DNA of 64,000 nt from Candidatus Omnitrophota bacterium (GTDB lineage Bacteria > Omnitrophota > Gorgyraeia > Gygaellales > Profunditerraquicolaceae). Below are positions 2,812-45,277 of this stretch, in pieces. The stretch lies in assembly GCA_028717245.1 (NCBI GenBank), contig JAQUOD010000005.1:18637-82636 (forward strand). Reading direction: 5' to 3'. The stretch's first letter is position 1. Each line of letters starts with the position of its first letter. A program made the translations under genes and the position numbers. The notes beneath the pieces were generated by a model. That model did not search any database, was not told the DNA's origin, and saw only the letters and a program-made list of their open reading frames with translations.

Positions 2812-3474
2812 TTATATTTTTCCTGCCAGTAAATTTAACAGCTGCGGCTCGTTGCCTATCAGCGTCAGGGCAATAATATCATCCCCGGGCTTAAGGACTG
2901 TATTACCTTTGGGGACGATTACCTCTTCTCCCCGGACAATAGAAACCAAGACCGAATCCTGCGGTAGTTGGACATCCTGAACCTGTTTGTTGATTACCGG
3001 CGAATCAGGGGGCAAGTCCAGGCGTACGATGGCCAGTTTCCCGCGCTTAAAACTCATCAAGTTGACGAAATCCGAGAAGGAGACTTCTTCTTCGATAATC
3101 TTGGAAATAATTTTAGTAGAATCAATGGGTACGTCCACCCCTAATTCAGAAAAGGTGTGTTCGTTCTCGGGATCGTTCACCCTGCCTACGGTACGGCTGA
3201 TTTTAAAGATCTCCTTGGCTAGTTGGCAGATGATGAGATTGTCTTCGTCGTCGCCCGTGACCGCAGCCAACACTTCCGCGTGGGCAATCCCTGCCTCTTC
3301 CAGGATGCGCGGCTCGCAGCCGTCGCCGTTAATTACCATGGCCTCTAATTCCTTGGTTATCTCTTCGCAAATCTGCTTGTTTTTCTCCACGATACTCACC
3401 GTATGCTTATTCAGGCTTAGCCTCTTGGCTAAAAAATAACCCACCTTACCCGCACCTACTATTATGATATACAT
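2812..3474 (-). CDS. trkA: potassium transporter peripheral NAD-binding subunit TrkA
   Basis: It carries the N-terminal Rossmann motif IIVGAGKVG (TrkA_N) and a C-terminal TrkA_C-like domain, and is 220 aa. Confidence 0.85.
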   Translation of the reverse strand: MYIIIVGAGKVGYFLAKRLSLNKHTVSIVEKNKQICEEITKELEAMVINGDGCEPRILEEAGIAHAEVLAAVTGDDEDNLIICQLAKEIFKISRTVGRVNDPENEHTFSELGVDVPIDSTKIISKIIEEEVSFSDFVNLMSFKRGKLAIVRLDLPPDSPVINKQVQDVQLPQDSVLVSIVRGEEVIVPKGNTVLKPGDDIIALTLIGNEPQLLNLLAGKI

Positions 3475-3486
3475 AATCGCCCTCTT

Positions 3487-3553
3487 CGTTATTGCGTTAC
3501 TTGCGTTTTAGCGTTATTGCGTTCGAATGCTATAACGCAATAACCCTATAACA
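3487..3553. repeat. CGTTATTG x4-5 / ATAACNNN x4 hairpin element (trkA-trkA spacer)
   Basis: The units CGTTATTG, CGTTACTTG, CGTTTTAG, CGTTATTG and CGTTCG are followed by loop AATGCT and then ATAACGCA, ATAACCCT, ATAACACT and ATAACC. Confidence 0.8.
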
Positions 3554-4204
3554 CTATAACCCAAACCTTTCTCTTACTTTAGTTAGGCTGGCCACCTTCA
3601 CTGCCGCTGTTAATATGTCTCTTTCTCTTAATGTAGTTGAGGATTCCGGGATAATGACGCCGTGCAGCCGCCTGATGGCCACAACCAAAAATTCTCCGGG
3701 GATATTGATATCCTGTATGGTCTTGCCTATCAGGTTATCTTTGGCTTCTATCTCGATAACCCCCAGTTCTTTAGTCTCAATGAGGTAACTGGAAAAGCGG
3801 CTCTCGATGATTTTGTCCCTGAGCATCGCGGCAAACAAGATTGTTCCGCTGATAATCTCAAGGCCCAATGCGGCATAGATATGCGCGCGCTGGGGGTCAT
3901 ATACGCGGGCGATAACCTTGGGGACCTTGAAGATTTTTTTGGCTGCCTGCGCGGAGATTAAATTGGTATTGTCGCCGTTAGTTACCGCACAGAAGGCATC
4001 CGCCTTTTCAATGCCCGCTTGTTTTAGCAGGCTTAAAGAAAAACCATTGCCTACCAGAGTTACTCCGTTGAAAGTATCGCCAAGACGGTCAAAAGACGCC
4101 TGGCTCTTATCAATCACGACTACGTCGTGCCCTTCTGCTGATAAGAGTTTGGCTAATTCCGAACCTACTCTGCCGCAACCTACTATTATCACATACATAA
4201 TCAA
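3554..4204 (-). CDS. trkA: potassium transporter peripheral NAD-binding subunit TrkA (second paralog)
   Basis: It has the motif IIVGCGRVG, a TrkA_N plus TrkA_C architecture, and is 216 aa. Confidence 0.85.
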   Translation of the reverse strand: MIMYVIIVGCGRVGSELAKLLSAEGHDVVVIDKSQASFDRLGDTFNGVTLVGNGFSLSLLKQAGIEKADAFCAVTNGDNTNLISAQAAKKIFKVPKVIARVYDPQRAHIYAALGLEIISGTILFAAMLRDKIIESRFSSYLIETKELGVIEIEAKDNLIGKTIQDINIPGEFLVVAIRRLHGVIIPESSTTLRERDILTAAVKVASLTKVRERFGL

Positions 4205-4211
4205 CCTCGCC

Positions 4212-4296
4212 GTTCATTGAGTTCGTTGAGTCTATAGAGTTTATTGAGTTAACCTTACGAACTCAATAACTCAAAAAACTCAACAGGCTCAAATAA
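4212..4296. repeat. NNNTTGAGT x4 / ACTCAANNN x4 hairpin element (trkA-rplT spacer)
   Basis: TCATTGAGT, TCGTTGAGT, CTATAGAGT and TTATTGAGT are followed by a loop and then GAACTCAAT, AACTCAAAA, AACTCAACA and GGCTCAAAT. Confidence 0.85.
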
Positions 4297-4304
4297 CTAT
4301 TATA

Positions 4305-4995: not shown

Positions 4996-5511
4996 TTATT
5001 TCGGGCCGGCAATGAAATATATAACCCTGCCTTCTAACATAGGCTCTTTTTCTACCTGCCCGTCGTTCTGTAATTCCAGAATAAATTTATCGATAACCTT
5101 TCGGCCTATATCCAGATGCTCCATCTGCCTGCCGCGGAAGAACATGCTCACCTTGACCTTGTCTTTTTTCTTCAGGAAACTGATGGCATGTTTTACTTTT
5201 ATCTGGCAATCGTGCTCGTCGATATTAGGCTTAAGGCGGATCTCTTTTATGCGGGACTGGTGCTGGTGCTTCTTGGCCTCGCGTTCTTTCTTCTCCTGGT
5301 CGTATTTAAATTTAGTAAAATCGATTACCCGGCATACCGGAGGGCTGGCCGCAGGCGCAACCTCAACTAAGTCTAACTCGTGTTGATTTGCTATCTCCAG
5401 GGCCTGCTGAATAGGGACTACTCCCAACTGGTTACCGTCTGGCCCCACCAGGCGCACTTCTGGTACGCGTATTCTTTCGTTGGTGCGGATAAACTTTTTT
5501 ATCGTAACCAC
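4996..5511 (-). CDS. infC: translation initiation factor IF-3
   Basis: It shows IF-3 N- and C-domain motifs (RVPEVRLVGPDG...ALEIA...LDLVEV; KEIRLKPNIDEHD). It has a GTG start as read by the ORF track, consistent with non-ATG IF3 starts. Confidence 0.9.
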   Translation of the reverse strand: MVTIKKFIRTNERIRVPEVRLVGPDGNQLGVVPIQQALEIANQHELDLVEVAPAASPPVCRVIDFTKFKYDQEKKEREAKKHQHQSRIKEIRLKPNIDEHDCQIKVKHAISFLKKKDKVKVSMFFRGRQMEHLDIGRKVIDKFILELQNDGQVEKEPMLEGRVIYFIAGPK

Positions 5512-5521
5512 CTCCTTTTGG

Positions 5522-5598
5522 AGTTTGTTGAGTTCTTTGAGTTTGTTGAGTTAGTTGAGTTAACTCTATGAACTCTACAAACTCTATAAACTCAATGA
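5522..5598. repeat. NNNTTGAGT x4 / AACTCTNNN x4 hairpin element (infC-thrS spacer; inverted arm reaches thrS stop)
   Basis: TTGTTGAGT, TCTTTGAGT, TTGTTGAGT and TAGTTGAGT are followed by AACTCTATG, AACTCTACA, AACTCTATA and AACTCAATG. Confidence 0.85.
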
Positions 5599-7316
5599 AC
5601 TTTATTTTCTATTTCCTGCCTTATCTGTTTTACAAATTCTTCTATAGGCTTTGCCCCTAAGTCACCCTTGCCTCTTTGGCGCACGGCAACGGTCCCGTTT
5701 ATCTCCTCGCGCTCGCCCACAATCAGGATATAAGGAACCTTTGCTAATTCTGCCTGGCGTATCTTTTTGTTCAGAGTCTCGTTACGCTCATCCACCTCAA
5801 ATCTTATATGAGATTTTTCTAATTCGGGTTTAATCTTGCCCCTGATATACCCCTCTAATGAATCTTTTACCGGGATAACCATGACTTGCGTGGGGGCTAG
5901 CCACAGAGGAAACGCACCCTTATAGTGTTCTACCAAAGCGCCGATAAAACGCTCAAGGCTGCCCAAGAGCACGCGGTGCAACATTATAGGCTGTTTTTCT
6001 TTTCCTTGAGAGTCCACATAGGTAAGATTAAATCTTTTGGGGAGCGCGAAATCGCATTGAATAGTAGCGCATTGCCATTGGCGCTTCAGGGCGTCCTTTA
6101 ATTTTATATCAATCTTCGGCCCATAAAATGCGCCCTCTCCCGCATTTACCGTATAGGTTAAGCCTTTTTCTTTTAATGCCGCCTCCAACGCCTCGGTGGC
6201 CAGCTGCCAGTCTTCTTCTGAGCCGATATATTTTTCCGGACGCGTGCTTAACTCAATCCCCACGTCACTAAAACCGAAGACCTTCATCGTATCAAAGACA
6301 AATTCTATAATCATCTGTATTTCCTGCACCAGTTGTTCGGGTAAACAAAATATGTGCGCATCGTCCTGGGTAAAGCCACGCACCCGAAGCAGGCCGTGGA
6401 GGACCCCTGTCTTTTCATGGCGATAAACCGTGCCCAGTTCAAATAACCGTATAGGCAGGTCTTTATAACTGCGTATCCTGGATTTATAAATCAGGATATG
6501 GCCAGGGCAGTTCATCGGCTTTAAAACAAACTCCCGGTTTTCGATTTTTAAGATGTACATGTTCTCTTTGTAATATTCATAGTGGCCGGAGGTCTTCCAG
6601 AGCTCTGCCTGCATAATATGCGGGGTAATCACTATCTGATAGCCGCGGCGCAGATGCTCCTGCTTTTCGTAATCCTCGATTATCGTCCGCAGTAGCGCGC
6701 CCTTGGGATGATAAAAGACCAGCCCTGCCCCTGCCTCTTCATGATAGATATCAAATAATTCCATTGCCGGCCCCAGCTTCCTGTGGTCGCGCAACTTTGC
6801 CTCTTCTAAATTTTTTAAATATTCTTCTAATTTTTGCTTGGTTTCAAAACAAGTCCCGTAAATCCTCTGCAGCATCGGATTTGTCTCAATCCCGTGCCAA
6901 TAAGATCCGGCAACAGAGAGCAATTTAAAGGCCTGGATTTTGCCGGTGGATGCCAGATGCGGCCCGCGGCATAAGTCTATAAAATCTTTGCCTGTCTTGT
7001 AGATGGAGGCTGTCTCCCCGGGGAGCGCCTGGATAAGTTCTATTTTATAATCCTCTTTTAATTTTTTGAATAAGGCGAGCGCCTCTTTTTTGGAGAGCTC
7101 TTCTCTGATAAAAGGCTCATCCTTAGCGATTATTGCGCGCATCTTTTTTTCTATCTTTTCTAAATCCTCGTCGGTAAATGGCTCTTTCTTATCAAAGTCA
7201 TAGTAAAAGCCGTCTTCGATAGAAGGGCCGATGCCCAGCTTCGCCTGCGGCCAGAGCTCTTTTACCGCCTGAGCCATAATGTGGGAACACGAATGTCTTA
7301 AGGTATCTAAATTCAT
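5592..7316 (-). CDS. thrS: threonine--tRNA ligase
   Basis: This 574-aa protein has a class II aaRS core with ThrRS editing/second-additional-domain HxxxH (HSCSHIMAQA) and a C-terminal anticodon-binding domain. It lies in the conserved thrS-infC-rpmI-rplT neighbourhood. Confidence 0.93.
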   Translation of the reverse strand: MNLDTLRHSCSHIMAQAVKELWPQAKLGIGPSIEDGFYYDFDKKEPFTDEDLEKIEKKMRAIIAKDEPFIREELSKKEALALFKKLKEDYKIELIQALPGETASIYKTGKDFIDLCRGPHLASTGKIQAFKLLSVAGSYWHGIETNPMLQRIYGTCFETKQKLEEYLKNLEEAKLRDHRKLGPAMELFDIYHEEAGAGLVFYHPKGALLRTIIEDYEKQEHLRRGYQIVITPHIMQAELWKTSGHYEYYKENMYILKIENREFVLKPMNCPGHILIYKSRIRSYKDLPIRLFELGTVYRHEKTGVLHGLLRVRGFTQDDAHIFCLPEQLVQEIQMIIEFVFDTMKVFGFSDVGIELSTRPEKYIGSEEDWQLATEALEAALKEKGLTYTVNAGEGAFYGPKIDIKLKDALKRQWQCATIQCDFALPKRFNLTYVDSQGKEKQPIMLHRVLLGSLERFIGALVEHYKGAFPLWLAPTQVMVIPVKDSLEGYIRGKIKPELEKSHIRFEVDERNETLNKKIRQAELAKVPYILIVGEREEINGTVAVRQRGKGDLGAKPIEEFVKQIRQEIENKVH

Positions 7317-7317
7317 C

Positions 7318-7394
7318 GTCGTTAATCGTTATTCGTTAATCGTTATTAGATGGCTAACTTATCCATTAACGATTAACTATTAACCAATAACTAA
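7318..7394. repeat. CGTTAAT/CGTTATT x4 + ATTAACG-type x4 hairpin element abutting thrS start codon
   Basis: CGTTAAT, CGTTATT, CGTTAAT and CGTTATT are followed by loop AGATGGCTAACTTATCC and then ATTAACG, ATTAACT, ATTAACC and AATAACT. The element begins 1 nt from the thrS ATG on the minus strand. Confidence 0.85.
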
Positions 7395-7396
7395 AA

Positions 7397-7573: not shown

Positions 7574-8242
7574 TCATGATGGTTCGCAATAAACAGTTGT
7601 GCTTTTATCCCAACCTGTATACGAACTCAAGCACTGTTGAGCCAAATTTATCTTCCTCTCAAGCCCAAAGCAATGTTTATAATAACACTGTTTAGCAATT
7701 TCTCTTGCCGCCATTTTACCGTATTTTAATACCCAAAAATTATTTCTGCTGTTATGAATCTTACCGAAAACTTCTAATAACCCCGCTATTGTGTCGCTTA
7801 ACCAGTGAACAAATTCTTCGGAGCCAGAATATATCCTCAGGCTCCATTGTTCTCCTTTATTGGTCGGGTGTACCCAGCGACGGATACATCCGTCACCGTC
7901 AATTACTCCTCTTAAAAAATCAACGAAATATTGATTTGGTATTTCTAGAGCACCCAATGTCAGAGATTTATTTTGTGTTAGCCCAATCGATAAAAGGAAA
8001 TTGTATAAATTTTTGTTTCCTACCTGAATATGAAAACATCTCTGATTTTTACTATTATATTTGATACCAATTTTGTTCTTGAGCCCGGTTGCGTCTTTAA
8101 TCGCCTGAAGGAATTGAGAATCTTTAGAGGTTATGTCTATATGTCTCCCATCCGGACATAAACACCCATCAGTTGCAATCAAACCTACCAAATACCAAAG
8201 ATTTGAACCTTCAATTTTCAATTCTTTTCGCTTATTCGGCAT
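7574..8242 (-). CDS. free-standing LAGLIDADG homing endonuclease (two-motif, monomeric type)
   Basis: This 222-aa ORF has two LAGLIDADG motifs (LWYLVGLIATDGCL and FLRGVIDGDGCI). It fills the whole spacer between tRNA-Cys and tRNA-Leu with gaps of 6-7 nt. Confidence 0.8.
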   Translation of the reverse strand: MPNKRKELKIEGSNLWYLVGLIATDGCLCPDGRHIDITSKDSQFLQAIKDATGLKNKIGIKYNSKNQRCFHIQVGNKNLYNFLLSIGLTQNKSLTLGALEIPNQYFVDFLRGVIDGDGCIRRWVHPTNKGEQWSLRIYSGSEEFVHWLSDTIAGLLEVFGKIHNSRNNFWVLKYGKMAAREIAKQCYYKHCFGLERKINLAQQCLSSYTGWDKSTTVYCEPS

Positions 8243-17965: not shown

Positions 17966-22013
<4,048 letters not shown>

Positions 22014-22014
22014 A

Positions 22015-22160
22015 AATTTGTGTAATGTGTAAAGTGTAATGTGTAAAGCGGGTGTAATGCAAAAGATAGGTGTAATGGGGAAAACACTTGCATTACACGG
22101 TAAAATATTAAACCTACATTACACGTTACACATTTAACGTTACACAGAAACGCAGCCCCT
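22015..22160. repeat. intergenic direct/inverted array of GTGTAAT(G) / CATTACAC units (gyrB-gyrA spacer)
   Basis: There are about 6 GTGTAA(A/T)G units followed by 4 CATTACAC/GTTACAC units, a long imperfect hairpin. Confidence 0.8.
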
Positions 22161-22175
22161 TAACTTTTATTAAAA

Positions 22176-25100
22176 ATGTATACGCGTAACGAAAAAATTA
22201 TCCCGGTTTATATTGAGGATGAGGTCAAGGACTCTTATTTAAATTATGCCATGAGCGTCATCGTCGGCCGCGCCCTGCCCGATATCCGCGACGGCTTAAA
22301 GCCGGTGCACAGGCGCATTCTTTATGCCATGCAGGAGCTTAATCTTGACCACTCTAAGCCTTATAAGAAATGCGCGCGTATCGTCGGCGAGGTCCTGGGT
22401 AAATACCATCCCCACGGCGATGTCGCGGTTTATGATGCCTTAGTCAGGATGGCCCAGGGTTTTTCCCTGCGCTATCCTTTGGTAGACGGGCAGGGAAATT
22501 TTGGATCGGTCGACGGGGATGCAGCTGCCGCGATGAGATATTGCGTCACCGGAGATACTCTGATTGTTACAGATAAAGGACTGCAAAGAATAGACAAACT
22601 TCCTCATCATTCCAAAACAGATTTTCGGGTACTTTCATTAAATAATAAGATAAATCATGTTTCAAAATGGTTTGATTCCGGAGAGCATTTAACTAAAAAA
22701 ATTACTACCTTTAGAGGTTTTAGCTTATGCGGGAGCCGGAATCATCCTATTTTAACGTGGCAACGTAATGGAACAAAGCCAAAATTAGTTTGGACACTAT
22801 TGAATAATGTAGAAAATGGCGATTTTGTCGTAGTCAGTAGGAGCGGTTCGTTATTCCCTTCAAGGGAACCTTTATTAAAAAAATTTTATCCAGAACTTCG
22901 AAACAGAAGGCAGGAGCATAAGCTTCCTCGCGCTATGAATGTAGATCTGGCTTTTATTTTGGGAGCGCTAATTGCAGAAGGTTCTATAAGCAGGGAACAA
23001 ATTGGATTCTGTAATGGGGATAAAGAGTTTCTACGGGAATTTAAATCGTGTTTCCAGCGAGTATTCCCCGATTGCAGGCTGCATGAATTTGTAAGAAAAC
23101 CGTTGAGTTATGGGAAAAAGAAATGTACTTATTTAGAAATTCATTCAATGCATGTTATAGATTTTTTGAAAAATCTAGGGTTACGTCAGTTGCGAGCTTA
23201 TGATAAAACCATTCCAGATATAATTTTTTCTTCCTCGAAAAAATCGGTTGCCGCGTTTATAAAAGGTTATGCAGAGGGAGATGGTAGTATTTGTGTTGGC
23301 AAAAGAAACCCTGATATCAGCTTGATATCAACCAGCGGAAAATTGATTCAAGGTTTACAGGTTTTCCTCCTAATGTTTGGCATTGATTCTTCGCATAGAT
23401 TTCATAAGCAAAAAAACTATTTTAGGTTGTTTATTAGAGGCCGCAACAATCTCGATTTATTTAAAAATCAAATAAATTTTGCTACTAGGAAAAGTCGTGA
23501 AAGGTTGATAGATATTTGTAATCGCAATAAAACTGATTGGGTTATGTCCAAGACAGATTGTATTCCCTACATCGCCGACTATCTTCGTAAAAAAAGCACA
23601 CGGTGCAAGAGAAAATATTGGGGGAACATAGAATGGCTAAAAAAACACAACATCGATAGGTACCCAAAAATAGAAAAATACTGGCCCAGGCTAAGAAGGG
23701 TTCTTGATAAAGACGATGTTAGTTTGTTTGAGGGTTTGATAAAAAATAGATATATCTTTGATAAAATTGTTTCGGTAGAAGATGCTGGTAAGAAAAGAGT
23801 CTATTCAATTAAAGTGGATAGCCCGTGCCACTCATTTGTATCCAATGGATTCATAAGTCATAATACTGAAGCGCGCCTGGCTGCTATTTCCGATGAGATA
23901 CTCGCGGATATTGATAAGGACACCGTAAATTTCGGGCCCAATTTTGACTCCTCCCTCAAAGAGCCGCTTTTATTGCCCGCGGCCTTGCCTAATCTGTTAG
24001 TGAACGGCTCAAGCGGTATAGCTGTGGGTATGGCTACCAATATCCCCCCGCACAATTTGAATGAAGTGGCCGATGCCATTATCTATCTATTAGATCATCC
24101 GGAAACCGAAATCAAGGACCTGATGCGTTATATCAAGGGTCCGGATTTTCCGACGGGCGGCGTAATCTGCGGCAGGAACGGTATCAAAGATGCCTATACC
24201 ACAGGAAAAGGTAAGCTCACCGTGCGCGCGCGGGCCACTATCGAGCGCCAGAAGAACGGCAAGGACCTGATTATAATTACTGAGATTCCCTACCAGGTGC
24301 AGAAATCCGCGTTAATTGAGGCCGCCGCCGCTTTGGTGGACGATAAAAAAATAGAGGGTATTTCTGACATCCGCGATGAATCCGATAAAGACGGGATGCG
24401 TATCGCGGTAGAACTCAAGCGCGACGTGGAAGCGCAGATTGTCTTGAATCAGCTCTTTAAACATACGCAACTGGAGACTACCTTCGGGATTATTATGCTG
24501 GCGCTGGTAGACAACAGGCCGCGGGTTTTGACGTTACGTCAGATGTTGGAATATTATATCGAGCACCGCAAGATTATCATCCGGCGCAGGACGCAATTTG
24601 AATTAGATAAGGCCTTAAAGAGGGCGCATATCTTAGAGGGCTTAAAGATTGCCCTGAAATACATCGACCGGATTATCAAGGTCATCAAGACCTCCAAGAA
24701 TACGGAGAATGCCAAAGAGCGCCTGATGAAGGAATTCGGCCTTTCTGATGTGCAGGCGCAGGCGATATTAGAAATGCAGTTGCAGCGCCTCACTGCTTTA
24801 GAGCGCGATAAGATTGACGCCGAATATTTAGAGCTCCTGAAAAAAATTGAACTGTGTAAAGCCATACTCGCCTCGGAGAAGAAAATTGAAGGCATCATCA
24901 AAGAGGATCTGGAGGCCTTAAAGAAAAAATACGGCGATGAACGCAGGACCGACCTGGTCGCCGAAGCAGAAGAATTAGAGGTGGAAGACCTTATCGCCGA
25001 AGAAGACGTAGTGGTGACAATAAGCCACGGCGGTTATATCAAGCGCTTGCCGGTGAGCGCCTACCGTAAACAGAAACGCGGGGGCACAGGGGCAACGGGC

Positions 25101-25931
25101 GCAGAAGTCAAAGAAGAGGATTTTATAGAACATCTTTTTGTGGCCTCGACCAAAGATTATTTATTGACCTTCGCTGATAAGGGCCAGGTGCATTGGCTCA
25201 AGGTTTATGAAATCCCGCAGGCCAGCCGCACTTCCAAAGGCAAGGCCATCATTAATCTTTTACAGATGGAAGCAGGCTCTAAAGTCAGCTCGACCATACC
25301 GGTGAAGGAATTCTCCGCTGACCAATACCTGGTAATGGTCACCAAGTGCGGCCAGATTAAAAAGACAAGGCTTGACGCCTACGGTAATCCGCGCAAGGGC
25401 GGGATTATCGGCATTAGCCTGGATAAGGGCGATGAGCTGATCGGCGTAGAGTTAACCGACGGAAAACAGGAGCTGCTTATCGGTACCCGCCAGGGTAAGG
25501 CCATAAGATTTTCTGAGAGCAAGGTGCGGGATATGGGCAGGCAGGCAGGAGGCGTACGCGCCATCTCTTTAGCCAAGAAAGACGAAGTGATTGCCATGGT
25601 TTTAGCCCAGAAGGATACCACAGTATTAACCGTTACGGAATTAGGCTTTGCCAAACGTACACCCATTCAAGAATACCGCCTGACCAGCCGCGGCGGCAAA
25701 GGCATTATTAATATAAAAGTCACCAGTAAGAACGGCGAGGCAGTAAGTTTAAAGACTGTCAGCGACAACGACGAGCTGATGGTTATTACACAGAACGGCA
25801 TGTTCTTACGTTGTGCGGTCAAAGATATCCGCACTACCGGCAGGTCTGCCCAGGGAGTGCGGCTGATTAAGCTACAGGAGAAAGACCGCGTTTCTTGCGT
25901 GGCGCCGGTGATTGCAGAAGAGGAAGAATAA
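22176..25931 (+). CDS. gyrA: DNA gyrase subunit A, intein-containing precursor (about 810-aa extein plus 441-aa intein)
   Basis: The GyrA N-terminus is present. AAMRY (catalytic Tyr at extein residue 122) is interrupted by CVTGDTLIV...NGFISHN and resumes at [11 protein letters not shown]. Confidence 0.95.
22542..23864 (+). mobile_element. GyrA intein with LAGLIDADG homing endonuclease domain
   Basis: It is inserted directly after the catalytic Tyr. Splice-junction blocks resemble the mycobacterial GyrA intein (…ITNGFVSHN). LAGLIDADG motifs are [14 protein letters not shown] and [14 protein letters not shown]. It is 1323 nt and in frame. Confidence 0.85.
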
Positions 25932-28415: not shown

Positions 28416-29069
28416 ATGCTCTATATCGTTGCTACCCCTATCGGTAACTTAAAAGATATCAGTTTGCGCGCCTTAGAGGTATTAAAGAGCGTAGATTTAA
28501 TCGCCTGCGAGGATACGCGGCACACCAGGATCCTGCTTGAGCATTATGGTATCCATGTTCCTACTACCAGCTATTTCCAACATAATAAACTTACTAAAGG
28601 TGGATACCTTATCAACCTGCTCAAAGAGGGCAAATCCATTGCCCTGATTTCGGATGCCGGCACGCCGGGCATACTCGATCCGGGTTATCACCTGATTAAT
28701 TTAGCCATCAAGAATAATATCGCTATCACTTGTATCCCCGGTCCGGCTGCCTTTATCAATGCCCTGGTTCTCTGCGGCAAACCCACGCATAATTTTATCT
28801 TTGCCGGATTTCTGCCCCGCACGTCGTTAGCCCGGCGTAACCGCCTGAAAGAACTGGCAAAACTAGAATGCACTATTGTATTTTATGAATCCTGCCACAG
28901 AATCATGAAGACCCTGGAGGATATGGGGTGCGTTTTCGGTGACAGAGGAATAGCCTGCTGCCGGGAACTGACCAAAAAGTTCGAAGAGATAAAACGGGGC
29001 AGTAGCCAGGATATCTTAGGGCAACTGGAAAAAGAAAAACCGCGCGGAGAATTCGTGGTGGTGGTATAA
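28416..29069 (+). CDS. rsmI: 16S rRNA (cytidine1402-2'-O)-methyltransferase RsmI
   Basis: It has the tetrapyrrole-methylase-like fold and the RsmI N-terminal motif LYIVATPIGNLKDISLRALEVL...CEDTRHT. Confidence 0.88.
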   Translation: MLYIVATPIGNLKDISLRALEVLKSVDLIACEDTRHTRILLEHYGIHVPTTSYFQHNKLTKGGYLINLLKEGKSIALISDAGTPGILDPGYHLINLAIKNNIAITCIPGPAAFINALVLCGKPTHNFIFAGFLPRTSLARRNRLKELAKLECTIVFYESCHRIMKTLEDMGCVFGDRGIACCRELTKKFEEIKRGSSQDILGQLEKEKPRGEFVVVV

Positions 29070-29080
29070 ATTTTTCCTTG

Positions 29081-29116
29081 ACAGGGAGCGCTTTAGATGG
29101 TATATTTGAATAAATT
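29081..29116 (+). promoter_or_regulatory. candidate sigma70-type promoter in rsmI-pyrR spacer
   Basis: TTGACA at 29081 is followed by a 17-nt spacer and a TATATT -10-like box. Confidence 0.35.
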
Positions 29117-29324
29117 AGACGAGGCCTTTAAGCTAGTTCTTGAGAAACTAGCAAGGACAAGATCATGAATCAGGGTAAACTAAAATCAGAACACCCAACT
29201 GCAAAAGAAAGCGGTTGGGTTTTTTATTGAGCGCATAACTTATGAACACAAAGTGTGAGTAAGTTATATGCGCGAAATAATCCCGCCCGTTAAACAGTAT
29301 ATACCGGTTACATTAAACGCATAG

Positions 29325-29891
<567 letters not shown>

Positions 29892-29987
29892 TAGTTCATT
29901 GAGTCTATTGAGTTCATAGAGTCCATTGAGTTGTATATATCATAACTCAAAAAACTCAAAAAACTCAAAAAACTCAAAAAACTCAAT
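29892..29987. repeat. 9-mer NNNTTGAGT x4 / ACTCAAAAA x4 hairpin element (pyrR-pyrB spacer, ends at pyrB ATG)
   Basis: The units CATTGAGT, CTATTGAGT, TCATAGAGT and CCATTGAGT are followed by loop GTATATATCATA and then ACTCAAAAA x4 plus ACTCAAT. Confidence 0.85.
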
Positions 29988-30935
29988 ATGGTCTGGACGA
30001 GAAAAGATTTACTGGGTTTAGAAGATTTAAGCCGGGAAGAGCTGGAGTTTATCTTAGCTACTGCGGATTCCTTTAAAGAGGTTTCTACCCGCGAGATTAA
30101 AAAAGTCCCGGCCTTACGCGGTAAGACCGTGGTGAATTTGTTCTATGAACCCTCTACAAGGACAAGGGTATCTTTTGAGCTAGCAGCAAAACGCTTATCC
30201 GCAGACGTGATTAATATTGCCTCAGAGACCTCCAGCGTCAAAAAAGGGGAAACCTTAATTGATACCGGCAGGAACATAGAGGCCCTGAAAGTAGATATTA
30301 TCGTAGTGCGGCATAATTATTCCGGGGCAGCGGCAATACTGGCGCGCCATGTCAAGGCCAGCGTGATTAATGCCGGAGACGGCTGGCACGAACATCCTAC
30401 GCAGGCGCTCTTGGATATTTTTACTTTAAAGGAGAAACTAGGCAGGATTGAAGGGTTAAGGGTGAGTATTGTCGGAGATATCGCGCACTCGCGCGTGGCC
30501 CGTTCCAATATCTGGGGGTTGACTAAATTAGGCGCTCAAGTGACGGTCTGCGCGCCCAAAATGTTGGTGCCGCCGGCCATTGAAGAAATGGGCGTTAGAG
30601 TGACTAATGATATAGATGAGGCGCTAAAAGATGCTGATGCAGTGGATGTCTTAAGGATGCAGTTTGAGCGCGATGAGGGTAATGCCTTCCCAGAGCAATT
30701 AGAATATTTTAAAAACTTCGGGATTACCGAAGAAAGGTTAGAGAAGGCTAAGAAGAATATTATTGTCATGCATCCGGGGCCCTTAAACCGCGGGATTGAA
30801 ATTTCCAGCGGCGTAGCCGACGGCGCAAACTCTGTGATACTGGAACAGGTGACCAACGGCATTGCCGTGAGGATGGCCGCGCTCTTTTTAGTAGCGCAGG
30901 CGAATGAGAATATCAGCCATGAAGATACTCATTAA
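29988..30935 (+). CDS. pyrB: aspartate carbamoyltransferase catalytic subunit
   Basis: It has the STRTR and HPTQALLD motifs and is 315 aa. Confidence 0.95.
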   Translation: MVWTRKDLLGLEDLSREELEFILATADSFKEVSTREIKKVPALRGKTVVNLFYEPSTRTRVSFELAAKRLSADVINIASETSSVKKGETLIDTGRNIEALKVDIIVVRHNYSGAAAILARHVKASVINAGDGWHEHPTQALLDIFTLKEKLGRIEGLRVSIVGDIAHSRVARSNIWGLTKLGAQVTVCAPKMLVPPAIEEMGVRVTNDIDEALKDADAVDVLRMQFERDEGNAFPEQLEYFKNFGITEERLEKAKKNIIVMHPGPLNRGIEISSGVADGANSVILEQVTNGIAVRMAALFLVAQANENISHEDTH

Positions 30936-33564: not shown

Positions 33565-33586
33565 CCCTGCCTGCCGGCAGGCAGGG
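33565..33586. repeat. perfect palindrome CCCTGCCTGCCGGCAGGCAGGG (related copy inside pyrK at 41462-41483)
   Basis: It has 11-bp arms, there is no U-tract after it, and a near-copy CCCTGCCTGTCCGGCAGGCAGG is embedded in the pyrK coding sequence. Confidence 0.8.
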
Positions 33587-39067: not shown

Positions 39068-39431
39068 CCGTATCGAGTTAGTGGATATTACGGAGAGAAT
39101 CCAGGCAATAGTATCTAAAAGCAAAGTTAAAGATGGCGTGTGTTTTCTCTTCTGTCCGCATACTACTGCCGGGCTGACTATCAATGAAAACGCAGATCCG
39201 TCGGTCAGGCAGGATATTATCCGTGCCCTGAATAAGCTCATCCCGGAAAATGCCGGATACACGCATAGTGAAGGCAATTCCGATAGCCATATCAAGGCAG
39301 CGCTCTTTGGTTCTTCCCTAACTATATTTATTGAGAGTGGCCGCTTGGCATTCGGCACTTGGCAGGGGATATATTTTTGCGAAGGCGACGGACCGCGCTC
39401 CAGAGAGGTCTGGGTTAAAATTTTAAGTTAG
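39039..39431 (+). CDS. YjbQ/UPF0047 family protein (secondary thiamine-phosphate synthase-like)
   Basis: It has the YjbQ pattern [21 protein letters not shown]...HIKAAL and is 130 aa. It overlaps the carB 3' end by 29 nt. Confidence 0.75.
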
Positions 39432-39550
39432 CACCTGGTGTGAATCCAATCGGGCACCAGGTGCGAATTCAAGATTGTACCAGGTACAAGATTAGATTTG
39501 GAAACGGTACAAGATTAGTTTCGCACCTGGTACGAGATTAGCTCGGCACC
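39432..39550. repeat. array of 5-6 palindromic GCACCNGGTGC-type units (upstream of mutM)
   Basis: The units CACCTGGTG, GCACCAGGTGC, GTACCAGGTAC, GCACCTGGTAC and GCACCTAGTGC are separated by spacers of about 10-18 nt that contain AAGATTAG. Confidence 0.8.
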
Positions 39551-39552
39551 TA

Positions 39553-40368
39553 GTGCAAGGAGAAGAAATGCCGGAGTTACCGGAAGTTGAGACCATAAAA
39601 AGGGAATTAGAAAAAGCAGTCCTGGGCAAGAAGATTACCGAGGTCTATGTGCATCGTGCTGTGGTTATTCGTCAACCCTCTGTAAAGAGATTTAAGCTGG
39701 GCTTAACCGGCGCCAGCATTAAGCATATCTTGCGTAAGGCCAAGGTTTTGATTTTGGAGCTTTCTAACGGTAAGGCCCTGGTTATTCATTTGAAGATGAC
39801 CGGCCAACTGGTTTATCCGGGTAATGATAAAGCCAGCCGGGTGAGTTTTAAATTATCCGGCGGTAAAACCCTGGATTTTAACGACCAGAGATTATTTGCG
39901 GAACTGCGGCTGATGGATGATTGGCGCAGCTTAAAATTTATCCAGGGATTAGGCCCGGAGCCGTTTGCTATAACCGCGGAAGAATTCAAAGGCATGCTCA
40001 GCAGTAAAAAGACTAAAATCAAACCACTGCTTTTGGACCAAACATTTATTTCCGGCATAGGCAATCTCTATGCTGCGGAAGCGCTCTTTCGGGCCGGGAT
40101 TCATCCTGAACGGCCCGCGTCTTCTTTAACAGATAGAGAAAAAGCTTTGTTATTTCGGGAAATAAAAGATACTTTATCCGAAGCTATAAGATACAAAGGT
40201 TCCTCGGTAGACCAATACGTGCAGTTATCGGGTGAACCCGGAGACTACGCGCAATATCATAAGGTATATGGCCGCGAAGGTAAGCCTTGTTTGGTCTGCA
40301 AAACACCGATTAAAAGGATGGCCTTAGGCGGCAGGGGGACTTATTTCTGCCCGAGGTGCCAGCGCTAA
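39553..40368 (+). CDS. mutM: formamidopyrimidine-DNA glycosylase
   Basis: It has the N-terminal MPELPEVE and a C-terminal zinc finger CxxC...CxxC, and is 271 aa. Confidence 0.9.
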   Translation: MQGEEMPELPEVETIKRELEKAVLGKKITEVYVHRAVVIRQPSVKRFKLGLTGASIKHILRKAKVLILELSNGKALVIHLKMTGQLVYPGNDKASRVSFKLSGGKTLDFNDQRLFAELRLMDDWRSLKFIQGLGPEPFAITAEEFKGMLSSKKTKIKPLLLDQTFISGIGNLYAAEALFRAGIHPERPASSLTDREKALLFREIKDTLSEAIRYKGSSVDQYVQLSGEPGDYAQYHKVYGREGKPCLVCKTPIKRMALGGRGTYFCPRCQR

Positions 40369-41053: not shown

Positions 41054-41918
41054 AAAGATGCTTCAAATCAAGGCAAAAATACTTTATAATAAAAGGATTA
41101 AGGGTAATTATTTTCAACTGGTCCTGGGAGCTTCGCAGATAGCCAAAGAAGCCCAGCCAGGACAATTTGTGAATATCAGGGTAAACGGCGGCGCTTTTGA
41201 ACCGCTGCTGCGCCGGCCCTTTAGTATCCATAAGGCCTCAAGAGGTAGCATAGAGATTCTTTATGAGGTGCTGGGTGAGGCGACGCAGATTTTATCAACT
41301 CGCAAGGCAGGGGAATATTCAGATGTGATTGGGCCATTAGGGCATGGTTTTAATTACAGCTTACAGCTTACAGCTTACAGCTTACGGATATTAGTTGCCG
41401 GCGGCATGGGAGTCGCGCCGCTTTTATTCCTCGCGGAAAAAATACAGAGGTGTCAAAGTGTCCCTGCCTGTCCGGCAGGCAGGAAAGTGTCAAAGTATCA
41501 AAGTATGGTATTAATAGGAGCTAAGACAAAATATCAGCTTTTCTGCGAAAAAGAGTTTAAAGATTTAGGTTGCGCAGTAAAAATCGCCACTGACGACGGC
41601 TCAAGAGGTTTTAAGGGCAAGGTTACTGAGTTGTTAAAACATATTCTACCAACGACCAACGACCAACGACCAACGACCATATACGCTTGCGGCCCAAGGC
41701 CGATGTTAAAACAAGTTGCGTTGATTTCTCAAAAACATAAAATTCCCGGTCAGATTTCTTTAGAAGAACATCTGGCCTGCGGCATAGGTGCGTGTTTAGG
41801 TTGCGTAGTGAATACGACAGGAGGTTTTCAGAGAGTCTGTAAAGAAGGCCCGGTCTTTAGCGCTGATAGTATAATCTGGTCAAATGAAGACGAGACTTAT
41901 GGAGCGAAGCGAACGTAA
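41043..41918 (+). CDS. pyrK: dihydroorotate dehydrogenase electron-transfer subunit PyrK (with three in-frame repeat insertions)
   Basis: It has the FAD-binding RRPFSI, an NAD-binding domain, and C-terminal Cys ligands CGIGACLGCVV for the 2Fe-2S cluster. Confidence 0.8.
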   Translation: MNGKKMLQIKAKILYNKRIKGNYFQLVLGASQIAKEAQPGQFVNIRVNGGAFEPLLRRPFSIHKASRGSIEILYEVLGEATQILSTRKAGEYSDVIGPLGHGFNYSLQLTAYSLRILVAGGMGVAPLLFLAEKIQRCQSVPACPAGRKVSKYQSMVLIGAKTKYQLFCEKEFKDLGCAVKIATDDGSRGFKGKVTELLKHILPTTNDQRPTTIYACGPRPMLKQVALISQKHKIPGQISLEEHLACGIGACLGCVVNTTGGFQRVCKEGPVFSADSIIWSNEDETYGAKRT

Positions 41919-41936: not shown

Positions 41937-41962
41937 CCCGCCAAAGTTCTGTGGCGGGTTTA
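41937..41962 (+). terminator. candidate rho-independent terminator after pyrK
   Basis: The stem CCCGCCA/TGGCGGG is followed by TTTAATT. Confidence 0.5.
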
Positions 41963-42030
41963 ATTCGCACAATAACTTACTCACACTTTGTGCTCGTAAG
42001 TTATCTGCTCATTAAAAAAGGAGGCAGACA

Positions 42031-43182: not shown

Positions 43183-43272
43183 AAGCGGCGTCAAAGTATC
43201 AAGGTGTCAATGTGTCAAAGTGTAGATTTTTTGATACTTTGATACACTGACACTTTGACACAACATTAGGAG
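43183..43272. repeat. GTCAAAGT/GTATCAAG x4 + inverted x4 hairpin element (GT2-tauE spacer)
   Basis: CGTCAAAGTATCAAGGTGTCAATGTGTCAAAGTG is followed by loop TAGATTTT and then TTGATACTTTGATACACTGACACTTTGACAC. Confidence 0.85.
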
Positions 43273-43640: not shown

Positions 43641-44576
43641 ATGCAAAACAAACTTTCCGTGAATATAGGTAACTTGAAACTCAAGAACCCGGTGATGGTT
43701 GCCTCAGGTACATTTGGTTATGCCGATGAATTCCGGGGCTTTATGGATTTAAAAAAACTGGGCGCGATTGTCACCAAGACCATTACCTTAAAGCCCCGCC
43801 AAGGCAACCTGCCCCCGCGCACCTGTGAAACTCCCGCGGGCATGCTTAACTCTATCGGCTTAGAAAATCCCGGGCTTATAGTTTTTCTGGCAGAGAAATT
43901 ACCCCAGTTGAAAAAGATAGGCGTGCCGATAATTATCAGCATTGCCTCTGAGGATAACCCGGATGAATTTATCAGCCTTGCAAAGCGTCTGGATAAAGTC
44001 AGGGGAGTCGCGGCGATAGAGCTAAATATTTCCTGCCCTAATGTTAAAAATCCCAAATCCCAAATCCCAAATCCCAAACTAATCTCTCAGAATCCAAAAG
44101 CAACTTATAATTTAGTCAGGCAGGTGCGCAAGGTTACCAGCAAGACTATTATTACCAAGCTTTCCCCTAATGTTACCGATATCGCCGAAATCGCTTTGGC
44201 AGCTGAAAGAGCCGGCAGCGACGCGGTTTCTTTAATAAATACGCTTACCGGCATGAGCATAGATATAAAAACGAAGAAACCTAAGATCGCAAGCGTTACG
44301 GGAGGTTTAAGCGGTCCGGCAATTAGGCCGGTTGCGGTGAGGATGGTCCGGGAGGTTTATCAAAAGATTAAAATCCCTATCGTCGGAATGGGTGGTATAA
44401 TGGATACCAAAAGCGCACTGGAATTCTTTATTGCCGGGGCAACGGCAATCAGCATAGGCACGGCGAATTTTATTAATCCCAAGGTAACCATGGAAATAAT
44501 CCAGGGTATAAAGGAATATTTGATTACCAATAAAATAAAAGATATTAAAATACTGAGCGGGAGCCTTAAAACATGA
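43641..44576 (+). CDS. pyrD: dihydroorotate dehydrogenase catalytic subunit (class 1B)
   Basis: It has the TIM-barrel DHOD motifs ASGTFGY...NSIGLENPG...ELNISCPN...GGI. It contains an in-frame AAATCCC x4 repeat. Confidence 0.9.
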   Translation: MQNKLSVNIGNLKLKNPVMVASGTFGYADEFRGFMDLKKLGAIVTKTITLKPRQGNLPPRTCETPAGMLNSIGLENPGLIVFLAEKLPQLKKIGVPIIISIASEDNPDEFISLAKRLDKVRGVAAIELNISCPNVKNPKSQIPNPKLISQNPKATYNLVRQVRKVTSKTIITKLSPNVTDIAEIALAAERAGSDAVSLINTLTGMSIDIKTKKPKIASVTGGLSGPAIRPVAVRMVREVYQKIKIPIVGMGGIMDTKSALEFFIAGATAISIGTANFINPKVTMEIIQGIKEYLITNKIKDIKILSGSLKT

Positions 44577-45277
44577 AACCAGCGAACAGCGAACAGCGAA
44601 CAGCGACCCAACTGATTCTCGCCCTGGACGTAGATAACCCTAGAGAGGCGCTACGTTGGGTAAAGTTGCTTTATCCGAAAGTAAAAATTTTTAAGGTGGG
44701 TTTAGAGCTTTATACAGCAGGCGGCCCCAAGATTATTCGGGCTATCCGTAAAACAGGGGCGAGCGTTTTTTTGGATTTAAAATTTAATGATATCCCTAAC
44801 ACCATGGCAAAAGCAGCTAAAGAGGCATTAAAGCATAAAGCAGCCATGTTTACAGTGCATACCTTATCCGGGCCAACCGCGCTTAAGGAGGTTAGCAATA
44901 TCTGCCGCGGAAGCCATACTAAGGTCTTAGGGGTAACCCTGCTCACCAGTATCTGCGGCCGTTTCCTGAAAGATTTAGGAATTAATAAGCCAGTGTCGAG
45001 TGAAGTCCTGTATTTAGCCAGAATGGCAAGAAGATGCGGCTTAGACGGCGTGGTCTGCTCTGTGCAGGAGGCAAGGATAATCAGGAAACGCTTAGGCAGG
45101 AATTTTATTATTCTTACTCCCGGGATAAGGCCAGATGGTTTTATAAAAGAAGACCAGAAAAGGATTGCCACGCCCAAAGACGCAAGGGAAGCCGGTGCAG
45201 ATTTTATTGTCGTCGGCAGGCCAATACTTAAAGCAAAGAATCCAAGACAGGTAGTAGAAGAGATATTGACGGGATAG
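44573..45277 (+). CDS. pyrF: orotidine 5'-phosphate decarboxylase
   Basis: It has LILALDV...DLKFNDIPNT. The N-terminus carries a CAGCGAA x4 repeat. Confidence 0.9.
   Translation: MKPANSEQRTATQLILALDVDNPREALRWVKLLYPKVKIFKVGLELYTAGGPKIIRAIRKTGASVFLDLKFNDIPNTMAKAAKEALKHKAAMFTVHTLSGPTALKEVSNICRGSHTKVLGVTLLTSICGRFLKDLGINKPVSSEVLYLARMARRCGLDGVVCSVQEARIIRKRLGRNFIILTPGIRPDGFIKEDQKRIATPKDAREAGADFIVVGRPILKAKNPRQVVEEILTG

Follow-up and report, generated by a model that had tools for sequence, protein, structure and literature searches.

Tandem-array hairpins in operon spacers of a Candidatus Omnitrophota genome, including a lineage-specific insertion between pyrR and pyrB

Hairpins whose arms are arrays of about four short tandem units lie between co-directional genes of an uncultured Candidatus Omnitrophota bacterium, represented by a metagenome-assembled genome (MAG), and the copy separating pyrR from pyrB is the main subject here. 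The DNA analysed (the window) is a stretch of 64 kb. Three of its hairpins are built on the core TTGAGT and the inverted core ACTCAA, and are called copy b (4212–4298), copy c (5516–5605) and copy f (29892–29985); L-numbers denote loci or contigs of other genomes compared with the window. Gene annotation relies on a Pfam scan of 20 open reading frames (ORFs), that is, of part of the window. A Firmicute origin is ruled out, PyrB and IF3 being 100% identical to Candidatus Omnitrophica MAG proteins, and with an Omnitrophota host the analogy with Bacillus that a preliminary description had drawn is inapplicable. The features around copy f are the following.

29078–29229, plus strand: likely true pyr leader upstream of pyrR (promoter, sub-threshold match to RF00515, terminator)
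29352–29891, plus strand: pyrR-like phosphoribosyltransferase gene (PF00156, PF14681), upstream of copy f
29883–29887, plus strand: AAGGA in the last pyrR codons, putatively relevant to pyrB from the sequence and the predicted fold
29892–29985, plus strand: TTGAGT hairpin insert, from the pyrR stop to the pyrB start (sequence, tandem-repeat search with TRF, empty-site comparison with L081–L084, folds)
29988–30935, plus strand: pyrB (aspartate carbamoyltransferase), with an N terminus two codons shorter than in the nearest relatives

Copy f opens with a 5′ arm (29893–29932) of four N3-TTGAGT units, one of which carries TAGAGT (units TCATTGAGT, CTATTGAGT, TCATAGAGT and CCATTGAGT), continues with a loop of 11–13 nt (about 29933–29943) and closes with a 3′ arm (29944–29986) in which AACTCAAAA is repeated 4.8 times, 100% perfectly; the right arm is 100% uniform, the left about 75%. 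Its predicted RNA fold reaches −32 kcal/mol (z −4.56; DNA fold, z −4.48). In the four nearest relatives (L081–L084; PyrB 91–94% identical) the pyrR–pyrB spacer measures only 2 nt and the junction reads ...GAAAAGGATTAA-AT-ATG (also given as ...GTAGAAAAGGATTAA-AT-ATGCC...), versus ...GAAAAGGACTAA-(94 nt)-AT-ATG (also given as ...GTAGAAAAGGACTAA-(94 nt)-AT-ATGGTC...) in the window, where the ancestral AT is left between the 94-nt insert and the pyrB ATG. The pyrB copy is therefore an insertion, clean and lineage-specific, and the notion of a conserved regulatory element is not supported, the nearest relatives being entirely without it. A wider survey covered 34 related loci, in 31 of which the pyrR end could be located. 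The pyrR–pyrB spacer is 15 nt or shorter, or the genes overlap, in 20 of the 34, and at the remaining loci the inserts, of 27–148 nt, are unrelated in sequence and in several cases fold into strong hairpins (−33.8 kcal/mol in L001, −40.6 in L004 and −31.5 in L024).

As to the pyrB start, copy f had been described as ending 0 nt from the ATG and as leaving no Shine–Dalgarno (SD) sequence. No SD sequence indeed lies between copy f and the pyrB ATG, but the last ACTCAA stops 1 nt short of that codon. In the element-free relatives AAGGA is SD-like for pyrB, at 7 nt from the ATG; in the window the two are separated by 100 nt of linear sequence, or by about 9 nt across the base of the hairpin as modelled. 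The pyrB AUG is predicted to be unpaired with a probability of 0.05, compared with 0.64–0.65 in the relatives without the element, and in the minimum free energy fold the stem is lengthened by pairing of the SD region, GGACUA, to UGGUCU, which comprises the AUG and the next bases. The earlier suggestion of a translational occluder agrees with these predictions, in which the start codon would be buried.

The three arrays of direct and inverted 9-mers contain all 17 matches to TTGAGT-N3-TTGAGT (at most one mismatch) found in the window, compared with a mean of 0.15 and a maximum of 2 in 100 dinucleotide shuffles. Period-9 arrays of 4.3–4.9 copies are detected by TRF on either side of each element, and an inverted-repeat search gives arms that are 78–84% complementary. 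The predicted RNA folds of copies f, b and c reach −32, −33.3 and −31 kcal/mol (z = −4.6, −3.4 and −4.5, respectively), none of 200 shuffles being equally stable. The architecture set out in the preliminary description (four direct 9-nt units, a loop, four inverted units) is present at all three sites, each in an intra-operon spacer. The long imperfect stem of about 36 bp stands as to its imperfection and length, but not as a continuous duplex, each stem having 29–31 pairs in 4–5 helices of 6–9 bp with internal loops between them.

The other elements of the same design in the window are listed below, the two remaining TTGAGT copies first. On the minus strand the Pfam scan identified thrS, infC, rplT and two trkA paralogues; the order tRNA-thrS-infC-rpmI-rplT-trkA-trkA is conserved in relatives (four contigs compared).

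5516–5605, minus strand: TTGAGT hairpin (copy c) between thrS and infC; the thrS stop TGA lies in the first unit, and infC keeps an AAGGAGG SD downstream
4212–4298, minus strand: TTGAGT hairpin (copy b) from rplT to the first trkA paralogue, which has retained its GAGG SD on the downstream side of the hairpin
3487–3562, minus strand: 8-mer hairpin (units resembling GCGTTATT, facing inverted ones) that separates the trkA paralogues (TRF, sequence, fold)
7317–7396, minus strand: 7-mer hairpin (TCGTTAA / TTAACGA) from tRNA-Val to the thrS ATG, with no SD present
22019–22146, plus strand: 7-mer hairpin (TGTGTAA / TTACACR; −47.5 kcal/mol) from gyrB to gyrA, the 73 nt at its centre being structured
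43190–43259, plus strand: 8-mer hairpin (GTCAAAGT / ACTTTGAC) from a GT2 glycosyltransferase gene to a TauE-family gene, the SD AGGAG being kept downstream

Two details of the earlier account needed amendment: copy b does lie between trkA and rplT, but in this minus-strand operon rplT is transcribed first and trkA follows; and copy c does overlap the end of thrS, but through its first TTGAGT unit rather than its inverted arm. Comparison of orthologous spacers, as had been recommended, revealed empty, filled and differently filled junctions. The thrS–infC spacer measures 80 nt in the window versus 7 nt in L208, the rplT–trkA spacer 100 versus 13 nt, and the trkA–trkA spacer 79 versus 12 nt (12–20 nt in relatives); the distance from the tRNA to the thrS ATG is about 12 nt in L205, and the GT2–TauE junction spans about 28 nt in L008 (tblastn coordinates). 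By sequence comparison the other copies are insertions too. At thrS–infC and rplT–trkA, L205 has unrelated tandem-repeat hairpins (a GCGATAA heptamer and a 12-mer, the latter at rplT–trkA). In L206 (GCA_041643025.1, an assembly independent of that of the window) a TTGAGT hairpin occupies the orthologous thrS–infC junction with an identical left boundary (...GAAATAGAAAATAAAGTTCATTGAG), and the thrS stop falls inside the first TTGAGT unit in both genomes. That copy was therefore inherited from a common ancestor, with internal divergence since, and an assembly artefact is excluded; the case that the elements belong to one assembly only thus does not arise.

In all, seven hairpins of about 4 + 4 units occur in the 64 kb, three with TTGAGT and four with unrelated 7- or 8-mers; all seven stand between co-directional genes and begin a few nucleotides from the upstream stop codon or overlap it. 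They appear to form a class of element rather than a single motif, in which TTGAGT is not special. Short-period arrays in general (units of 7, 8 or 9 nt) are found at 24 sites in the window (3.75 per 10 kb), and are common in some relatives and lacking in others. Copy numbers of period-7 arrays in 461 kb of Omnitrophota DNA follow a bimodal distribution, with a chance background at 2–2.5 and a second class at 3.5–4.9, and no period-7 array there has five copies or more.

The best reading of these sequences would be that such elements repeatedly colonise very short spacers between co-transcribed genes in this Omnitrophota lineage. They are taken here, with somewhat better than even confidence, as non-autonomous repeats of the short tandemly repeated repetitive (STRR) or repetitive extragenic palindromic (REP) kind that are tolerated in operon spacers, the pyrB copy being a lineage-specific insertion. 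Each would be a small non-coding palindrome, either arm consisting of about four short units in tandem. Homogenisation within arrays, through slippage or gene conversion, would shape the arms, and not selection of perfect pairing; the uniform right arm of copy f, the uncompensated TAGAGT and the species-specific uniform heptamers of PyrK (see below) support such homogenisation. Transcribed within the polycistronic mRNA, an element would fold as a long interrupted stem; a stem without a U-tract implies no transcription termination there. At the pyr locus, copy f would part pyrB from the SD-like AAGGA at the end of pyrR and bury the AUG, leaving free 30S subunits unable to start at pyrB. A ribosome finishing pyrR would open the base of the stem to reach the UAA and free the 3′ arm, while the inner stem would hold the AUG nearby; reinitiation there would most likely couple pyrB translation strictly to that of pyrR. 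The stem may secondarily protect the cistron that precedes it against 3′ exonucleases.

Stem stability seems to be only weakly selected, because copies c and f fold better as antisense (−36.5 and −37.2 kcal/mol, versus −28.7 and −27.4 kcal/mol in the sense RNA) and because TAGAGT variants in one arm have no compensating change in the other. The weaker sense folds argue against selection for mRNA stem stability, without deciding on selection of other kinds; in five of the seven hairpins the sense strand folds slightly better, and with copies c and f worse, selection for sense-strand RNA stability is unsupported. Identities within arms (0.6–1.0) and between arms (0.76–0.87) are about equal, and uninformative.

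Several points weigh against the view of tolerated repeats, these strand differences among them. Comparison of empty and filled sites at pyrR–pyrB allows a target-site duplication of at most 1–2 nt. No transposase, REP-associated tyrosine transposase (RAYT) or reverse transcriptase was seen in the ORFs examined in the annotated part of the window; mobility and the mode of arm homogenisation are inferred, and the RNA-level effects are all predictions. About four units are found per arm whatever the unit length, unlike what simple slippage predicts. The thrS–infC copy has been kept since the window and L206 split (IF3 83% identical), and the conserved core of 6–7 nt, the free YR-type spacers and the fixed arm order across phyla would fit a selected function.

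That cross-phylum distribution was examined with a scan in which each species was represented by one genome and three TTGAGT units spaced 9 nt apart were sought. At least 120 loci in many phyla were returned, mostly coding repeats or one-armed arrays among the matches listed. Further copies of the direct-plus-inverted kind, as anticipated from the window, were found in other genomes, namely in Pyrinomonadaceae and Chloracidobacterium (Acidobacteriota), a deltaproteobacterial MAG, Binatia and another Omnitrophota genome. The hairpin fills a stop-to-start junction in L092 and L127 (Acidobacteriota) and in L195 (Omnitrophota); in L107 (the deltaproteobacterial MAG) only the stop side is readable, and the hairpins of L101, L112 and L129, at locus ends, are directly followed by ATG, with no flanking ORF callable. 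In 11 of 11 hairpins among the matches listed the TTGAGT arm comes first, at the 5′ side, and the ACTCAA arm second, and a control core in viral contigs shows both arm orders (5 versus 7). Common to the copies are the head GTTCATTGAGT, spacers that are mostly of the form T-Y-R, and a 5′ arm containing TAGAGT variants, features that point to a real family rather than to convergence. The counts themselves do not prove TTGAGT to be special, as three permuted control cores each also reach at least 120 viral loci; relative to control cores, only the hairpin arrangement and the arm order differ. A phage or plasmid vector was likewise rejected: no BLAST match was obtained in plasmid or phage collections (the low-complexity filter may hide matches), and the hairpin type is absent from the 120 viral TTGAGT arrays among the matches listed.

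Related arrays of 9-nt period, with TTGAGT, TTGGGT or TTAAGT followed by T-Y-R, were also observed in Ignavibacteria (L097, L102, L110, L177, L189, L190), Desulfobacterales (L104, L120, L132, L136, L157, L181, L182) and Bacteroidales (L165, L166, L172, L178, L187), and also in L200, the units seen in these phyla being biased by a scan aimed at TTGAGT. Some exceed 12 units, many face an inverted array or stop immediately ahead of an ATG, and a given unit recurs on several contigs of a single genome.

Among the alternatives, the hairpins might be selected cis-acting translation devices, stop–hairpin–start units in which shunt-like termination–reinitiation replaces SD-dependent initiation. In several phyla the hairpin begins a few nucleotides from the stop codon or contains it and ends 0–14 nt before the start, often with no SD between hairpin and start (copy f, L195, L127, L092); the two arms always come in the same order, so that an A/C-rich 3′ arm that pairs weakly adjoins the AUG, which in the models is sequestered unless the stem is opened, and the thrS–infC copy is kept in two divergent genomes. 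Nevertheless, the closest relatives manage with a 2-nt junction and no element, copies b and c and the 8-mer elements precede an intact SD that makes a device unneeded, the 7-mer hairpin before thrS follows a tRNA gene, so that no ribosome terminates there, and the acidobacterial copies do not display the geometry in which an upstream SD is bridged. A device of this kind is regarded as rather unlikely.

A purely local origin, by slippage and template switching at a small palindrome, with nothing mobile and with the shared units reflecting mutational preference, is doubtful to a similar degree. It would account for the lack of a target-site duplication and of a mobilising gene in the ORFs examined, for perfect arrays and concerted evolution, which show that a very active process makes or homogenises arrays in this lineage, and for the flanks of copy f (ACTAATA and ACTCAATA), which resemble the unit. 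It fits poorly with the head GTTCATTGAGT in three copies at unrelated sites of one genome, with the recurrence of this head and of the TAGAGT variant in other phyla, with a hairpin family CAATTCGCAC...GTGCTCATTGA at non-orthologous sites in four genomes, and with empty sites of 2–13 nt that offer no starting palindrome.

A broader proposal, which we would advance only as a long shot, is that a dedicated process writes and keeps uniform arrays of about 4–5 copies of 7–9-nt units, in spacers and in genes alike. Facing arrays would then be cross-phylum 'stop–hairpin–start' modules replacing Shine–Dalgarno initiation by structure-guided ribosome transfer between adjacent cistrons, and the arrays of PyrK would be the coding-region face of the process; an enzyme repeatedly copying a short template and a repair pathway are candidates for it.

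It is also improbable that the elements are arrays of TTGAGT/ACTCAA binding sites (DNA operators or partition-like sites, or platforms for an RNA-binding protein) or transposon ends reduced to transposase-binding repeats. Omnitrophota, Acidobacteriota and Deltaproteobacteria all show a conserved core of 6–7 nt and variable 2–3-nt spacers (mostly T-Y-R), the 5′ arm is invariably the one with TTGAGT (11/11 among the matches listed, against 5 versus 7 for the control core), and about four units per arm recall the multi-site ends of some transposons. However, the four same-architecture elements with unrelated units would call for several proteins in a small genome, units spaced 9 bp apart do not keep phase with the DNA helix, the sites are internal to operons rather than at promoters and the promoter scan gave nothing convincing, no candidate gene was recognised in the ORFs examined, and BLAST gave no plasmid or phage match. 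In particular, the TTGAGT-specific operator array raised in the preliminary description is unlikely, given the same 4 + 4 design with unrelated units and the uncompensated TAGAGT.

That copy f acts, as in Bacillus, as a PyrR-dependent attenuator or anti-terminator of pyrB is very improbable. Its position between pyrR and pyrB and its large stem–loop invited the idea. Yet an Rfam search (cmscan of 29000–30100 at E ≤ 10) gave no RF00515 match within 29892–29987, where only miRNA-precursor models, that is, generic hairpins, match, and a whole-window Rfam scan at the gathering threshold returned only tRNAs and nhaA-I. A terminator scan found no terminator-like site and no U-tract at copy f, whose A/U-rich stem is followed by AUAUGG, so that a reading as an intrinsic terminator was rejected as well. 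Creation of a promoter by copy f was discarded too, the only candidate matching at 9 of 12 positions and on the antisense strand. The element is moreover absent from the nearest relatives and has sister copies in unrelated operons, and a PyrR-type leader already exists upstream of pyrR. There, a near-consensus promoter-like sequence with an extended −10 (TTGACA-17-TATATT, 29078–29106) precedes a full-length but weak RF00515 match (29121–29228; 37.1 bits, E 0.003, gathering cut-off 54) and an intrinsic terminator (29193–29220) followed by the T run TTTTTTATTG. A PyrR-type attenuator may thus operate in Omnitrophota, but the link to copy f is effectively refuted. The chance of an assembly artefact is negligible: the source is a MAG and repeats are prone to mis-assembly, but each element is under 100 nt and shorter than a read, reading frames are intact on both sides, and the same architecture, with one orthologous TTGAGT copy, recurs in independent NCBI, ENA and JGI assemblies.

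The elements are best filed as a new variant within the dispersed palindromic repeats, closest to STRR hairpins, REP or REPIN elements and TAACTGA arrays. For the cyanobacterial STRR hairpins (e.g. in the hupS–hupL spacer of Nostoc/Anabaena), roles in transcript stability or translational coupling have been proposed, not shown (PMC2670836). Similarities include short tandem units that form hairpins at many loci (here 24 places in 64 kb) in intra-operon spacers, with 7-mer versions also in the window. Differences concern the phylum (Omnitrophota, also Acidobacteriota and others), the TTGAGT units of 9 nt rather than 7 with their conserved core of 6–7 nt and free spacer, the design of about 4 + 4 units with fixed arm order, the several elements that abut a start codon without SD, and the polarity of insertion, which empty-site comparison establishes here. 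Canonical STRR units are CCCCAGT, TTGGTCA and CAACAGT; the units of the window are unrelated to them and the host is no heterocystous cyanobacterium, so that a canonical STRR is excluded.

REP sequences are defined by a GTAG or CGTC tag at one end of a palindrome of 20–40 bp (PMC3733652). Like REPs, their bacterial interspersed mosaic elements (BIMEs) and REPINs, the window elements are small non-autonomous intergenic palindromes in many copies, often just past stop codons in operons, and would fold in the mRNA, where REPs are thought to act as 3′ stabilisers. They lack a GTAG or CGTC tag at either end, which rules out REP or REPIN proper, and differ by arms that are internally tandem-repetitive and by several unrelated unit families per genome; no RAYT (TnpA-REP) domain was detected in the 20 ORFs scanned. 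In Beggiatoaceae, Cyanobacteria and Bacteroidetes, direct repeats of the heptamer TAACTGA most commonly end 1 nt before a start codon; a role in translation was suggested for them, and one inverted case was reported (MacGregor 2015, PMC4679880). They resemble the present arrays in being short, intergenic and tandem, in sharing a unit between distant phyla and in ending next to a start, and differ in being direct only, in 2–6 copies (small sets being commonest), with one heptamer dominating per genome.

With Correia, ERIC, RUP and pneumococcal BOX elements and miniature inverted-repeat transposable elements (MITEs) the hairpins share a non-coding nature, a size of about 100 nt and inverted ends (arms 78–84% complementary), as well as, for MITEs and BOX-type elements, co-transcribed hairpins able to alter mRNA stability or translation. 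They differ in having no full-length consensus, only the unit core being conserved, and in a target-site duplication of at most 1–2 nt; no insertion sequence was seen in the annotated part of the window. Translation mechanisms offer another comparison. Split ribosome-binding sites are bridged by a hairpin in phage T4 genes 38 and 25, and shunting or bypass takes place after a stop codon beside a stem in the CaMV 35S leader and T4 gene 60. The geometry at pyrB would be alike by analogy (AAGGA and AUG about 9 nt apart across the stem base, stop codon at the foot of the stem); in the predicted fold, however, both the SD region and the AUG take part in base pairs, which favours occlusion plus coupling over simple bridging. 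As regards RF00515, only the location in a pyr operon beside pyrR is common, copy f having no sequence or structure match. Integron attC sites (R″ RYYYAAC at the 5′ side, R′ GTTRRRY at the 3′ side) were rejected, the element starting with AGTTCATT and ending with AAACTCAAT, in the opposite polarity, and the flanking genes being housekeeping genes rather than cassettes; a CRISPR reading was rejected on sequence features. No published description was found of Omnitrophota repeats, of nonamer or heptamer hairpins of this sort or of these unit strings.

Short arrays also occur within genes. In PyrK, PyrD and PyrF, variable loops contain perfect in-frame heptamer arrays of about 4.6 copies (31–33 nt), at the following positions.

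Window: pyrK 41354–41385 and 41648–41679; pyrD 44048–44078; pyrF 44580–44606
Relatives: L008 17804–17834, 18067–18099 and 20263–20331; L024 8287–8319 and 8552–8584; L029 17832–17864; L031 16132–16159

The 100%-perfect arrays all lie inside ORFs. One PyrK loop is encoded by TTACAGC, CAAGCCG, CCAAAAC or GCAGCCC units according to species, the other by ACCAACG, ACTGTCG, ACTATCG or GCCATCG; the units differ by 1–3 substitutions between species and are identical inside each array, and in other relatives the loops are equally long and non-repetitive. Either extreme concerted evolution or repeated rewriting would be at work. A 57-nt in-frame insert of pyrK (41450–41506; about 15 residues, RCQSVPACPAGRKVSKYQS), absent in most orthologues, consists of GTCAAAGT units, shared with the 43190–43259 hairpin, around the palindrome CCCTGCCTGTCCGGCAGGCAGG, and recalls Rickettsia palindromic elements by its insertion into a gene. 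The palindrome CCTGCCTGCCGGCAGGCAGG, that is, (CCTG)2 followed by (CAGG)2, is present in several Omnitrophota genomes, both intergenically and in ORFs, and its sites in L001 and L005 are orthologous. In a second family of dispersed hairpins the flanks CAATTCGCAC and GTGCTCATTGA are conserved and the inner stem varies while keeping its complementarity; this family has no Rfam match.

CCTGCCTGCCGGCAGGCAGG sites: window 33566–33585 and 41463–41482; L001 5886; L005 5805 and 12749; L017 10389; L023 623; L024 859
CAATTCGCAC...GTGCTCATTGA family: window 41949–42015; L001 about 2940–3010; L013 4658 and 4797; L014 13477 and 13713

Another palindrome (39431–39556), in which two direct units of about 23–25 nt are followed by two inverted ones (GCACCTGGTG...GATTGTACC and the inverse), separates carB from an fpg-like gene and ends at the SD of the latter. 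Direct-plus-inverted arrays of 7- or 8-mers adjoin pyrB in the distant contigs L034 (6793–6870 and 8571), L045 (1613–1694) and L048 (9302–9390), where PyrB is about 60% identical; the architecture is therefore not confined to the clade of the window.

Other features of the window deserve mention. The GTG listed as the infC start (5490–5515, minus strand) is improbable because AAGGAGG abuts that codon, and an in-frame ATA lies 8 nt past this SD (…AAGGAGGTGGTTACGATAAAAAAG), which suggests that infC may begin at a non-canonical AUA; in E. coli, infC begins with AUU. Both gyrB (18243–22013) and gyrA (22176–25931) contain an intein, that of gyrA with a LAGLIDADG domain; a lone LAGLIDADG ORF (7574–8242) is placed between tRNA-Leu and tRNA-Cys, and the gene lists of L205, L206 and L208 show no LAGLIDADG-type ORF in the corresponding region. 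Around 12–16 kb gene orientation switches and the cumulative GC skew is at its minimum, with yidC on the minus strand and a series of plus-strand ORFs running from 15397 into gyrB and gyrA. Two ORFs, of 444 and 363 aa, are tentatively assumed to be dnaA and dnaN. The orientation switch and skew minimum suggest that the window may span the replication origin.

For annotation, the pyr locus is a reminder that a large stem–loop beside pyrR need not be an attenuator and that start codons without an SD can stem from the insertion of an element. Hairpin-forming short repeats have been known in cyanobacteria for decades. For the question of their origin and function, the Omnitrophota junctions provide a comparative system, with empty and filled sites in close relatives, different elements at one and the same junction in different lineages, one inherited copy and a unit family that crosses phyla, in which insertion, turnover and effects on operon expression become answerable questions.

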